Source of the DNA: Escherichia coli
Lineage (GTDB): Bacteria > Pseudomonadota > Gammaproteobacteria > Enterobacterales > Enterobacteriaceae
Strand: one strand, 5' to 3'
Assembly: GCF_050920415.1 (NCBI RefSeq)
Contig: NZ_CP169309.1
DNA: 64,000 bases
This document shows positions 37,707 through 45,695 of the stretch, in pieces. The translations under genes and the position numbers were made by a program. The notes beneath the pieces were generated by a model. It was not told the origin of the DNA and ran no database searches. It saw nothing but the letters and a program-made list of their open reading frames with translations. The stretch's first letter is position 1. Each line of letters begins with the position of its first letter.

Positions 37707-40700
37707 TCAAATGTTTTTATAACATGTCACATGAGAAAATCCAAGTTTTGCCATTACGCTTTGCTCACCTGTTGCCAGGGAAATTTCGTATTGTTCATTG
37801 GAGTTTGCGGGACTAGATGACCAATACATATCTGAATAAAAATCGGCTTCATTCATGTAATGCCCCATATCTCCCCATTCACTGTACAATGTCCCTATAC
37901 CTCGGGAACGACCCTGGCTTAAAAGGCTTGCACGGGGAAGCATGTAGCCATTGCTACTGCAAAAATTTTCAGCAAGGCTGTATATCATGAAAGAATCGCC
38001 GGAGTTTACCCACCAACTCTTCACCCGGATTTCGTATATATAGCCAGGGCCTCCTGATTTTGGCGTCGCTGTAATCGTTACCCAACTGCTTCCGACATTT
38101 TTAAATGTCACTTTACCGGTAGCGTCAACATCGACCCAGGAGGCAGAGCTTGAAAACTCATAATCAGCCGCCGTTTTGCCCGGGGAAAAGTTGTCATTAT
38201 TCAACTGATAATACGCCCCGGTGAATCCCTGAGAAGGGAATGAGTCTGTCGGTAGGTCAACACCATTGACTGACACTGTACCGCTCATTTTTTTACTTTG
38301 TGCGCGAGTGAATTGTATTGTGGTACTCAGATCAGCTTGATGAACACCATTCAACACGGGGATCAGCTTTGCAATACCCTCTCCACCGCCTGTAACGGTG
38401 GCTTTGTACTCGCCGGAGAAATTATTACTGTAGTCAATTGCGCTAACTTGCACATAGGGCACGTTGGTATCTGACTGCACAAATTCCATCCCTTCAGAAA
38501 CATTGATCGGATTGCCTGATATATCGTGCAGAACAAGTTGTAGTTCAGCACTATCGATAAAGTCACCTTTCAGTGATGCCCGGTTGTTCATAAGGACGGA
38601 CTGCGAGGTGTCTGCTGGGCCAGCCACCAACGTTATATTAGCTGTTTGCGTTGCACCTGTGCTCGTTCCTGCACTAACAGTTACGCTCCCAGTTCGCGCA
38701 CTTTTCACGGTGGTTGTCGCAAATCCGTGTTGATCGGTCACCGCTGTTAATGACCCTAATGTGGCAGAGCCACTTTTTAATGCGAAGTTCACATTGACGC
38801 CTTCGACTTGGTTACCACTGCCGTCCTCAACAGTAGCCTTCAGCGTGCTGATATCGCTGTCGTTGGCAGTGATAGTTGACGGATCAGCGCTCAGGCTGAC
38901 CACATGGGCTGTGCTTTGGTTGCCAGTAACTTTCACGATTGTCTGCGCCTGAATAATTACGCCACTAGTGATAGATGCTGTAACCGTATACGTACCGACT
39001 TTATTGCTGGTCAGAACGACTTGTGCCTCCCCGGAAGGATTGGTTTTCATTGTTCCGCTACTTAACGTTGCATCTTCTGGCGTTACGCTAAAGGTAACGA
39101 GTTCATTGTTCACTGGGGCCCCATTTGGATTGGTTAGCCTTACTGTCAGAGTTGAACCTAATGGGTCATTGATGCCGATAAGTGGACTTGATGCTGTGAG
39201 TGTCAGTTTTAAATCGATTACCACCAGGTCCTTCTCATAAGAGGAGCCATTCGCCAGGGATGCTTGCACAGTATACGAACCGTATCTATTGGGCGTCATG
39301 GTGACTTCGGCTATACCCAGTGTATTCGTAGAGACCGTATCCTGACTAATGACCATGTTAAAAATTGACGGCTCTGCACTGAATGTCACAAGCTGTTCAG
39401 AAACTGGATTGCCAAACTGGTCGTCGACGTGCGCTTTAACCGCCAGGGGGGTTGCGACCATAACCTGACCTTCAGGCATTTCCAGACTGGTGATCGTCGC
39501 AGAATCAGCATCTGCTTTGACAGTCAACGTTTGCATGATGGTATCTGTAGGTGCATTTGCCAGATTAGCCACAACAATTTTCGTCCCTGCAATGGTGCTT
39601 GTTACAAGAATTTCTGCCTTACCCTGAGCATCTGTTTCAGCGGTGGTGTTACTCAGCGTGGCGGATAAGCCGCGGAAATTGACCTTGATGCCTTCTAATG
39701 GATTGTCATAAGCGTCAGTGACACTTGCCGTCAGGGTCGCACCCTCGGTTGTGCTGGCGATTAATGAGCTTGATGATGCGGTAAAATCAGCCAGTTTAGC
39801 GGTACTCGCATCGGCAAGCAAAGTCACCGGCCTCGTATCACTGACACCATAACTGTCCACGCTGACCGTCACGGGATAGGTGCCGGATTTTGTACCGCTC
39901 AGTGTAACTTCCGCCTTGCCGTTGATGTCAGTAATGGCGGAACCGCCTTCTCCAAGAGTGAAGCTTGCACTCACATCTGCCGGTAGTGTGAATGTCACCG
40001 GCTCATTGGCTAACGGGTTGCCGTGTCCATCAGTCACCGTTGCCTGAAGTTGGGTCATCCCAACGTTATTGGCGATAAAGTTGTTCTCGGTAACGTTCAG
40101 ATTAACCTGCGCTGTGAGCGTATCCGCAATAAAATTCACCACCAATTGCTCACTCTTACCGCCAGCCATCGCTGCTGTCACGGTATGTGCTCCTGCTTTT
40201 GTACCTTTCAGTGTGACTTTCGCTTTGCCTTCAGCATCAGTAACCGCTTTACCGCCATCGCTCAGCGTGAAGTTTGCCCTCACATCTTCCGGGAGAGTAA
40301 ATGTTACTTCAGTGTTGGCTATCGCATTGCCCTCTGTATCTGCGACTGTTGCTGTTAATGTCGTGAGATCGTTATTGTCGGCAATCACCGGATCTTTTGA
40401 GGCTCCCAGCGTGATTTCAGCATTCGCCACGTTCGGCACATAGGTCACTGTTTGTTGCATCGAATCGCCATTGTCGAGCGTTGCCGTCACTTGATAAACC
40501 CCGGCTTTTGTAGCGGTAAAGCTTGCGTAAAAATGGCCGTAGGAGTTGGTAGTATATATAGCGTTATTACTGGGGGTCACACCTTCACTTGGCGAAACGC
40601 TGATGGCCACCTTATGTTGGGGTACACCGTTTCCGTAATTATCGTTTACCACAACATACAGATCGGTCGTGTTGCCTGCGGAGACTGTATCAGTAAGTGC

Positions 40701-45695: not shown

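Follow-up and report, generated by a model that had tools for sequence, protein, structure and literature searches.

The 64,000-nt stretch of Escherichia coli DNA analysed here, which we call the window, contains an intact yeeJ gene of the long class. YeeJ is a widespread biofilm adhesin of E. coli and a popular surface-display scaffold. We favor the reading, with a probability of about 0.85, that the gene contains an old 609-nt module which is gained and lost by one unit in rare but recurrent events, that the K-12 gene is short because of a separate deletion, and that the outcome is a heritable length polymorphism and no high-frequency switch. The case is carried by the anatomy of the gene, the series of alleles, the chimeric junctions between copies, the age of the duplication and, in the sampled matches, the distribution of length classes over lineages. 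The feature is a known one, to which modest new population detail is added: an ordinary adhesin length polymorphism, in which one to three copies are reached through rare recombination and not through a fast switch. Stalk length may affect the function of YeeJ. Judging from the crystal structure of invasin, two Ig domains should add very roughly 7–8 nm.

Gene, domains and repeat units in the window

The minus-strand open reading frame spans 45770 to 37707, and translation from the ATG at 45695 gives the length of 2662 aa that an earlier note on this DNA had put forward (Table 1). An identical CDS is found in the RefSeq annotation of NZ_CP169399.1, a genome 100% identical to the window. The same note had named the gene yeeJ, and this identification holds: the protein is an inverse autotransporter with an IAT_beta barrel and a Big_1 array. 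The N-terminal 12-stranded barrel (PF11924) scores 378 bits (cut-off 22.3), and C-terminal to it follow the tandem Big_1 / invasin D3 Ig-like domains typical of a type Ve passenger. Besides IAT_beta, Pfam marks 16 Big_1 stretches and 17 Invasin_D3 stretches; the 19 domains D1 to D19 were delimited with an iterated HMM made from the domains of YeeJ itself. NCBIfam profiles run against YeeJ included no YeeJ model and gave no match above any cut-off. The LysM match is weak, at 14.2 bits under a cut-off of 20.9, and the first 150 aa of the protein are 94–96% identical to K-12 YeeJ, whose periplasmic LysM domain has been shown to bind peptidoglycan (PMC5595812).

Table 1. Features of yeeJ and its repeat array, with positions in the window.
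Feature	Position	Strand	Basis or remark
yeeJ CDS, 2662 aa	37707..45695	-	Inverse autotransporter (type Ve) adhesin, long (UMN026-type) length class
LysM-like stretch, weak, aa 78-99	45399..45464	-	Pfam LysM, E = 0.043
IAT_beta inverse autotransporter beta-barrel, aa 144-419	44439..45266	-	Pfam PF11924, 378 bits, E = 4e-113
Array D1 to D19, 19 Big_1-type Ig-like domains, aa 535-2460	38316..44093	-	Iterated HMM, self-built
Repeat unit copy 1, gene nt 3036-3644 (homology register)	42052..42660	-	Self-blastn, offset-609 identity profile
Repeat unit copy 2, gene nt 3645-4253	41443..42051	-	Self-blastn, offset-609 profile
Partial third copy X3, gene nt 4254-4466, 213 nt	41230..41442	-	Self-blastn extension, segment identities
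Domain-phased units of the earlier note, D6+D7 and D8+D9	41376..42593	-	86.7% identical
Longest exact stretch common to copies 1 and 2, 48 nt	42496..42543, partner 41887-41934	-	Exact-run scan, offset 609
Segment of 906 nt missing from K-12-type short alleles, three Big_1 domains	41581..42486	-	Alignments to K-12, Pfam
Left 23-nt motif CTGACAGCAACAGTGAAAGATCC, codes LTATVKD, in D6	42487..42509	-	Sequence comparison; K-12 deletion join
Right 23-nt motif CTGACAGCTACAGTGAAAGATCC, in D9	41581..41603	-	22/23 identical to left motif, 906 nt downstream
Divergent C-terminal third, aa 1950-2662, rare tip allele	37707..39848	-	66-80% aa identity to K-12/EHEC alleles
Invasin_D4-like domain	38097-38276	-	Pfam, 27.4 bits, just at cut-off
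Intimin_C lectin-like match, weak	37815-37997	-	Pfam PF07979, E = 0.017, 16 bits vs cut-off 27

Orthology with the K-12 gene is indicated by the near-identical N-terminal half (97.4% DNA identity over gene nt 1–3209) together with the position asnT - yeeJ - GT9 - shiA - amn. The right-hand neighbours GT9 (glycosyltransferase 9), shiA and amn are the same as beside K-12 yeeJ, and on the left an islet of ~8.6 kb lies between yeeJ and asnT. Martinez-Gil et al. (2017, Sci Rep 7:11326; PMC5595812) have described a long variant (yeeJ UMN026) and a short variant (yeeJ MG1655), the long one set apart by a 906-bp fragment that codes for three Big_1 domains and is missing from MG1655; the segment was noted to repeat sequence also found in MG1655, and the long form was reported in a minority of yeeJ-positive strains, EHEC among others. 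The allele of the window contains this 906-nt segment and thus belongs with the UMN026 long variant, being the same gene with the same right-hand neighbours. Unlike the K-12 and EHEC alleles, it has a rare divergent C-terminal third, with DNA 82–83% identical to theirs, for which an identity of ≥90% is reached in only 21 of 5,426 genomes; in the region of the putative C-type lectin-like cap the protein is only 67–76% identical to K-12 YeeJ.

A module of 609 nt, coding for two domains, is present 2.35 times in this allele. Self-blastn of the gene yields a single match, a tandem one at an offset of 609 nt, between nt 3036–3857 and nt 3645–4466 (822 nt, or 609 + 213; 81.8% identity, E = 0). Copy 1 covers the tail of D5, the whole of D6 and most of D7; copy 2 the tail of D7, the whole of D8 and most of D9; and X3, ~72% identical to the head of copy 2, runs from the tail of D9 into the head of D10. 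The repeat went undetected by Tandem Repeats Finder because the longest period of that program, 500, falls below the 609-nt unit, and offset-identity scans and self-blastn were used for repeat detection in its place. The earlier note had phased the repeat by domains into units at 42593–41985 and 41984–41376, described as in-frame tandem repeats of 609 nt with two Big_1 domains each, about 90% identical and followed by a more diverged third unit. Offset identity and Pfam, which finds two Big_1 stretches in each 203-aa unit, bear out this architecture. The identity was put slightly too high, as the two units are 86.7% identical without gaps (neighbouring 609-nt blocks: 31–42%) and only the highest-scoring 150-nt window between the copies reaches 90.7%; of the third unit, the first 213 nt are recognizably alike, but the full block lies at 42%, which is background. 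At the protein level D6 and D8 are 80% identical and D7 and D9 91%, with a median of 28% over all pairs of domains.

We give practically no credence to the notion that the duplication is an artefact, with a single unit spuriously expanded during assembly. Short reads can mis-assemble 600-nt repeats and several RefSeq yeeJ genes are flagged as frameshifted, but copies 1 and 2 differ at ~80 positions and are therefore not one sequence read twice, a closed chromosome matches the window exactly, and the two-unit form has been PCR-amplified and cloned from UMN026 (PMC5595812). Furthermore, ~1,150 complete genomes, assembled independently by many laboratories, show the arrangement, so that the structure, for which the earlier note had advised a check of the assembly, is real.

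Age of the duplication and origin of the K-12 short allele

The duplication had been described as recent, with K-12 as the unexpanded state, and the comparison of alleles speaks against both points. All six long alleles compared have the two-unit duplication (6/6), and among them copy 1 and copy 2 are separated by 37 fixed differences, 36 of which lie within the first 272 nt. Along the unit, the similarity of copy 1 to copy 2 forms a mosaic of 78%, 97%, 72% and 91–94% in these alleles. In the divergent head patches the two copies are 72–78% identical, whereas the same copy, compared by segment across alleles, is 92–99% identical for copy 1 and 92–96% for copy 2. Over the conserved patch and the 3′ 340 nt, copy 1 matches copy 2 at 91–97%, a level close to that of the same copy between alleles; the 3′ 340 nt alone, where the copies are 91–94% alike, hold one fixed difference and most of 17 shared polymorphisms. 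Taken as a whole, the copies show a synonymous divergence (dS) of 0.43; the two head patches stand at 0.76 and 1.03. Because 13–18% of positions differ, dS is 0.43 and 37 differences are fixed in the six long alleles, we conclude that the duplication is in all probability old and arose before the long alleles diversified. Gene conversion by other domains, or the import of sequence from divergent alleles, could account for part of the high dS of the head patches. For dating, outgroup-species yeeJ was sought by a scan of genome contigs, which gave only E. coli and Shigella loci.

K-12 YeeJ has 2358 aa and is without aa 1063–1364 of the window protein, in protein and DNA alignments alike. The earlier note was thus right about this length, about a protein ~300 aa shorter and about the difference lying inside the repeats, but not about the unexpanded state, as 906 nt are gone and not 609. 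These 906 nt correspond to 1.5 units, or three domains, and K-12 retains 0.5 unit. The deletion junction falls in a 23-nt motif found at both ends of the segment, whose placement is ambiguous by the same 23 nt. The common K-12 short allele traces to one deletion of 906 nt that joined two LTATVKD-coding motifs lying three domains from each other, and it is therefore a separate deletion derivative, not a pre-duplication or ancestral form.

Allele series and chimeric junctions among E. coli genomes

When repeat number is compared across E. coli, as the earlier note had proposed, it is not uniform, and the yeeJ module occurs in 1, 2 or 3 copies. About 2,916 of 5,426 complete genomes carry the yeeJ region. 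Class counts were taken from spread samples and best-match samples, and class frequencies were read from 40–60 matches each, such that figures for rare classes are lower bounds and variation within clones could be missed. The 906-nt deletion accounts for ~32 of 60 sampled matches (roughly 1,560 of the ~2,916 genomes) and the two-unit form for ~22–24 of 60 (roughly 1,150). One-unit alleles are present in at least 40 complete genomes (the best 40 matches to a one-unit query, all one-unit) and three-unit alleles in at least 29 (29 among the best 60 matches to a three-unit query); in the sampled matches these two classes together make up ~2–4% of yeeJ-positive genomes. A set of 777 genomes at ≥80% coverage of the one-unit query was rejected as a measure of the one-unit class, since it consists mostly of 906-nt-deletion alleles at 80–81% coverage. 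Intact proteins measure 2465 aa with one unit, 2660–2668 aa with two and 2863–2880 aa with three, and those of 2465 and 2863–2880 aa are common in the protein collection (one example, P0084, is found on 184 contigs).

Several of these alleles are near-perfect chimeras of copies 1 and 2. The one-unit allele of E47 follows copy 1 of Z1323 up to unit position 347–389 and then copy 2 of Z1323, with 2 mismatches in 822 nt; that of C-SRM-3 can be derived from a G1/2-like parent if the breakpoint is placed at 292–317, leaving 5 mismatches; and that of E700025 differs at a single position over 1491 nt from an array of PCN033 type shortened by 1218 nt. The E700025 junction has an identity of only 3–4 nt, and therefore some events in the 609 register would take place without long homology. 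The three-unit allele of NCTC9038 has a middle unit that combines the head of the allele's own third unit with the tail of its first (breakpoint 272–306, 0 mismatches in 609 nt), and in the three-unit allele of N3 the middle unit changes type at 91–108. Because the clean chimeras (0–5 mismatches) have different breakpoints, they show that contractions have arisen independently at least three times and expansions at least twice. The one-unit alleles of Santai and ACN002 were set aside as further separate events, their best parent fits among the fetched alleles leaving 15–19 mismatches; as some one-unit alleles lacked a matching parent in the fetched set, the number of events is a minimum taken from a few clean cases. 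The alleles of E47, NCTC9038 and Z1323 are annotated as frameshifted, which may stem from errors in long-read assembly. The gain and loss of whole units is in frame and reversible, as in a contingency locus, with crossover junctions in both directions, and the earlier suggestion that the units are substrates for expansion and contraction is upheld by these chimeras and by the one-unit (at least 40) and three-unit (at least 29) alleles.

One unit plus a partial copy is the simplest architecture, and the one-unit alleles are diverse (95–97% alike), which could suggest that they are ancestral and that successive duplication gave rise to the two- and three-unit alleles. We hold this to be highly improbable, as a single unit of ancestral origin should lie about equally far from both copies, whereas the heads of the one-unit alleles hold all copy-1 states and the sequence past the unit holds all copy-2-register states, and three of these alleles are lineage-specific copy-1/copy-2 chimeras with 1–5 mismatches and different breakpoints. 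E47 in particular, considered as an ancestral single-copy allele, was ruled out as a Z1323-type copy-1/copy-2 chimera with 2 mismatches.

We instead favor an old duplication of the 609-nt module that would have been followed by patchy divergence, the 3′ 340 nt still being 91–94% alike. Identical runs of 30–160 nt, depending on the allele, are kept between the copies and would therefore let the module occasionally misalign by one unit, perhaps through unequal sister-strand recombination or replication slippage. Each such event gains or loses exactly two Ig domains in frame, and one-, two- and three-unit alleles have been produced repeatedly in different lineages of E. coli. The outcome is a heritable polymorphism of stalk length, uniform within clonal lineages in the sampled matches.

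Stable polymorphism, related adhesins and typing

The earlier note had offered a more dynamic reading, in which near-identical units, duplicated in frame recently relative to the K-12 form, undergo frequent RecA-dependent expansion and contraction as a mechanism of phase or length variation. Tandem units do exist in yeeJ and their number varies from 1 to 3 among E. coli with signatures of crossover, the expansion in NCTC9038 is recent enough for its chimera to remain perfect, and three-unit alleles, with copies 97–98% identical and identical runs of up to 161 nt, should be less stable. We nevertheless consider this reading quite unlikely. A contingency locus would have nearly identical copies with long unbroken homology, but those of the window are 82–87% identical, with the divergence, dS and fixed differences given above, and share no identical run longer than 48 nt; K-12 differs by its separate deletion of 906 nt, not 609; and one- and three-unit alleles make up only the small percentage of yeeJ-positive genomes given above. 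Mismatch repair reportedly suppresses rearrangement between diverged tandem repeats strongly (Lovett and Feschenko, 1996). Length classes are discrete, and in the 40–60 matches sampled per search length class tracks lineage in every case, with one class per lineage: the intact O157:H7 alleles sampled all have two units, and the sampled K-12/B derivatives (K-12, BL21, DH5alpha) all have the 906-nt deletion. This uniformity of copy number within clones would argue against phase variation. Low-level heterogeneity within populations, of the kind seen at contingency loci, may nonetheless occur.

In-frame gain and loss of whole-domain repeats is known to alter surface reach in the alpha C protein of group B Streptococcus and in SasG and Aap of Staphylococcus, whose arrays consist of numerous, almost identical repeats and change measurably in culture or infection. 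In yeeJ, by contrast, the copies number two or three and are diverged, and variation within clones was not seen in the sampled genomes. The Yersinia ruckeri adhesin YrIlm (Wrobel et al., 2018), going by its treatment where it is cited in PMC6714894, is a type Ve protein with near-identical tandem Ig domains. On that account it resembles YeeJ in having a stalk grown by tandem duplication of Big domains and repeats that hamper assembly, and differs from it in that the yeeJ copies in the window are 82–87% identical and only two to three in number. Goh et al. obtained no evidence that repeat number varies in IatC and IatD, which are relatives from E. coli, and a 2025 paper on the STEC adhesiome has SNP associations only for yeeJ. 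A literature search for copy-number or tandem-repeat variation in yeeJ found nothing relevant beyond the 2017 paper (PMC5595812).

The long/short dimorphism has been on record since 2017 and no phenotype has been linked to it, long and short YeeJ showing no functional difference in biofilm assays (PMC5595812). That work has two variants only, whereas we find an allelic series on one 609-nt module, at 0.5 (K-12), 1, 2 and 3 copies, in which copy number has changed repeatedly, with the junctions mapped, and in which the K-12 form is derived by its own deletion and not ancestral. The copies in the window are too old and diverged for yeeJ to count as a phase-variation switch. A further idea, which we regard as unlikely though conceivable, is that the module acts as a slow length-tuning device, its recurrent gain and loss being selected to match the reach of the adhesin to the thickness of O-antigen or capsule or to the host. 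If so, copy number (0.5, 1, 2, 3) would correlate with serotype or niche, and the younger three-unit arrays, 97–98% identical, would vary at measurable rates. On the practical side, short-read assemblies and gene-presence typing will mis-size yeeJ, and PCR typing for the 906-bp fragment will misclassify one-unit and three-unit alleles.

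The long form of yeeJ and its tandem repeat

A single long ORF runs on the minus strand from 45770 to 37707, and with the ATG at 45695 as its start the product is a YeeJ of 2662 aa, the approximate length given in the earlier note; the identical CDS is annotated by RefSeq in the E. coli MFDS1022581 chromosome (100% identity). The LysM and lectin-like ends score under the Pfam cut-offs and NCBIfam holds no YeeJ model. The gene has the features that define a type Ve adhesin (see table), is the orthologue of K-12 yeeJ and qualifies as the long variant already published. There are candidate in-frame start codons on both sides of the annotated ATG: the ORF is open for 25 codons upstream (45696–45770), a further ATG at 45722 is used by some database entries (P0001, 2671 aa), and a downstream start was favoured in the 2017 paper, making K-12 YeeJ 2340 aa rather than 2358 aa (PMC5595812).

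Features of yeeJ and its surroundings (window positions unless aa is stated)
Feature	Position	Strand	Source
Inverse autotransporter beta-barrel	aa 144–419		Pfam
16 Big_1 and 17 Invasin_D3 stretches	C-terminal of beta-barrel		Pfam
19 Big_1-type domains (D1–D19)	aa 535–2460		HMM iterated on the protein's own domains
Repeat copy 1	42660–42052	minus	
Repeat copy 2	42051–41443	minus	
Partial third copy, 213 nt	41442–41230	minus	
C-terminal third of YeeJ, aa 1950–2662	37707–39848		
Islet, ~8.6 kb	~45700–54390		
LysR gene	46463–47341		
tRNA-Asn (asnT)	54387–54462		

The two tandem 609-nt units that the earlier note placed in this gene do encode two Big_1 domains each. They align ungapped at 86.7% identity, against 31–42% for neighbouring blocks of the same size, and are confirmed by self-blastn of the gene, which returns one match (gene nt 3036–3857 vs 3645–4466, counted from the ATG; 822 nt, 81.8% identity, E = 0). 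As this match extends over 822 nt, the repeat comprises 2.35 copies. The proposed third, diverged unit is thus alike in its first 213 nt, but the remainder is at background similarity. At the protein level, identity is 80% for D6–D8, 91% for D7–D9 and 55% for D8–D10, with a median of 28% over all domain pairs. Tandem Repeats Finder missed the array for the sole reason that its period is limited to 500.

K-12 YeeJ is 2358 aa long, in line with the earlier note, and, aligned to the window protein, is without aa 1063–1364 (302 aa, 906 nt), but it is not the form that preceded the duplication. K-12 DNA tracks the window gene until nt 3209 and picks up at nt 4093, with an overlap of 23 bases, and the motif CTGACAGC(A/T)ACAGTGAAAGATCC, coding LTATVKD, lies at both ends of the deleted segment, once in D6 and once in D9 (22 of 23 positions match in the window). 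As matching motifs bound the segment, the K-12 form is the head of D6 fused to the tail of D9, with three domains, or 1.5 repeat units, removed. The long form is not obtainable by duplicating anything in K-12, and the change therefore ran from long to short. The feature flagged in the earlier note is already known: Martinez-Gil et al. (2017; PMC5595812) described the long and short variants as well as the 906-bp fragment, with its repetitive character and three Big domains, and their biofilm assays showed no difference between the variants. What is new here is the series of alleles with 0.5, 1, 2 or 3 units and their mapped junctions, of which we found no description in the searchable literature.

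Allele series and recombination junctions

The repeat region is carried by about 2,916 of 5,426 complete genomes. Estimated from samples of 60 evenly spaced rows, the K-12-type short class (0.5 unit; 906 nt shorter than the two-unit form) makes up ~32 of 60 rows, or ~1,560 genomes, and the two-unit class, with the reference span, ~22–24 of 60, or ~1,150 genomes; other alleles, IS-disrupted or otherwise rearranged, were occasional among the 60 rows. Only a few percent of yeeJ-positive genomes have a one-unit or a three-unit allele. The best 40 matches to a one-unit query all span its 1491 nt unbroken, and O157:H16 Santai encodes an intact one-unit protein of 2465 aa. YeeJ proteins of 2851–2880 aa are numerous in the E. 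coli protein search (P0084, for example, is on 184 contigs) and contain three full units by sequence. Three units are present in at least 29 complete genomes, in several identity groups; in one such allele the second and third units are 97.9% identical at the DNA level, with identical runs of up to 161 nt. No four-unit protein was among the top-scoring matches of the protein search. yeeJ is a typical domain-repeat length polymorphism of a bacterial surface protein.

One-unit alleles are chimeras that join copy 1 to copy 2. Strain E47 follows copy 1 of strain Z1323CEC0014 to unit position 347–389 and then its copy 2 (2 mismatches in 822 nt), and for C-SRM-3 a G1/2-like parent fits, with a breakpoint at 292–317 and 5 mismatches. 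E700025 can be derived, with 1 mismatch over 1491 nt, by removing 1218 nt from a PCN033-type array or 609 nt from a two-unit relative; the join lies within just 3–4 shared bases. Three-unit alleles carry the converse signature: in NCTC9038 the middle unit perfectly combines the head of the allele's own third unit with the tail of its first (breakpoint 272–306, 0 mismatches in 609 nt), and that of N3 changes from copy-2 to copy-1 type at position 91–108. In T3, PCN033, G1/2 and VCSW7 the middle unit is of copy-2 type at all diagnostic sites. Together, these junctions show at least three contractions and at least two expansions as independent events, mostly within the longest identical stretches, and support the earlier suggestion that the units are recombination substrates. 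Units may have been gained and lost by unequal sister-strand exchange or by replication slippage, as the sequence data fit both; tandem-repeat rearrangement at this repeat size can be RecA-independent in E. coli.

Age of the duplication and length stability

The duplication had been called recent, a view that comparison of six long alleles (window, 118, Z1323CEC0014, F3, WP8-S18-ESBL-07 and RM8843) does not support. The same copy is 92–99% identical per segment between alleles, and copy 1 matches copy 2 at 78%, 97%, 72% and 91–94% over unit positions 0–100, 100–180, 180–290 and 290–609. There are 37 fixed differences between the copies, 36 of which fall in the unit's first 272 nt; the other one, and most of 17 shared polymorphisms, are in its last 340 nt. 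The window's two copies have diverged at synonymous sites by 0.43 overall, and segment by segment by 0.76, 0.10, 1.03 and 0.32. The duplication is therefore older than the diversification of the long alleles, and the mosaic similarity suggests patchy homogenisation or replacement afterwards.

Nor does the repeat in the window appear to be the phase- or length-variation switch that had been envisaged, because the longest stretch identical between its copies is 48 bases, length class is constant in the sampled lineages, and one- and three-unit alleles are rare. Every sampled row of intact O157:H7 alleles has two units, and every sampled row of K-12, B, BL21 and DH5alpha derivatives has the 906-nt deletion. 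Lovett and Feschenko reportedly found in 1996 that, through mismatch repair, tandem repeats in E. coli rearrange far less often the more they have diverged.

Other variation at the locus

More broadly, the yeeJ locus is structurally unstable. In O145:H28 RM13516, an outbreak-lineage genome, it is a pseudogene through an out-of-frame deletion of ~847 nt in the repeat region (gene nt ~3576), joined at a 3-nt microhomology, ACC. Strain F3 keeps both 609-nt units and has lost ~615 nt in frame (two Ig domains) near the C-terminus, leaving a 2458-aa protein; this deletion (window gene nt 6521–7135, window 38561–39175; junction in a short shared motif) is a second, independent in-frame length polymorphism. 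Insertions of IS3-family (IS1203), IS66 and IS1 elements break yeeJ in several O157:H7, O103:H2 and other genomes, for example O157:H7 strain 1130 (its locus 7095–8308), and the gene is therefore often inactivated. About 2,300 complete genomes, phylogroup B2 among them, have only a degraded, frameshifted remnant of ~2.8 kb with the barrel and a few Ig domains, which in the B2 strain UM146 (locus 3648–6455) directly adjoins fyuA of the yersiniabactin island.

The window YeeJ has a rare variant of the C-terminal third, the part with the presumed binding tip: among the 5,426 genomes, 3 match it at ≥99% identity, 14 at 95–99% and 4 at 90–95%. As this third is only 82–83% identical in DNA and 66–80% in protein to the K-12 and EHEC alleles, whereas the N-terminal 1900 aa are ~90–100% alike, the pattern suggests that the tip was swapped by recombination (allelic replacement). 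In K-12 and EHEC, asnT lies ~300 nt upstream of yeeJ; in the window an islet of integrase remnants, an MFS transporter, a HAD hydrolase, hypF and hypE paralogues, a cysteine hydrolase and a LysR regulator stands between them, and the promoter context of yeeJ is therefore unlike that in K-12 and EHEC.
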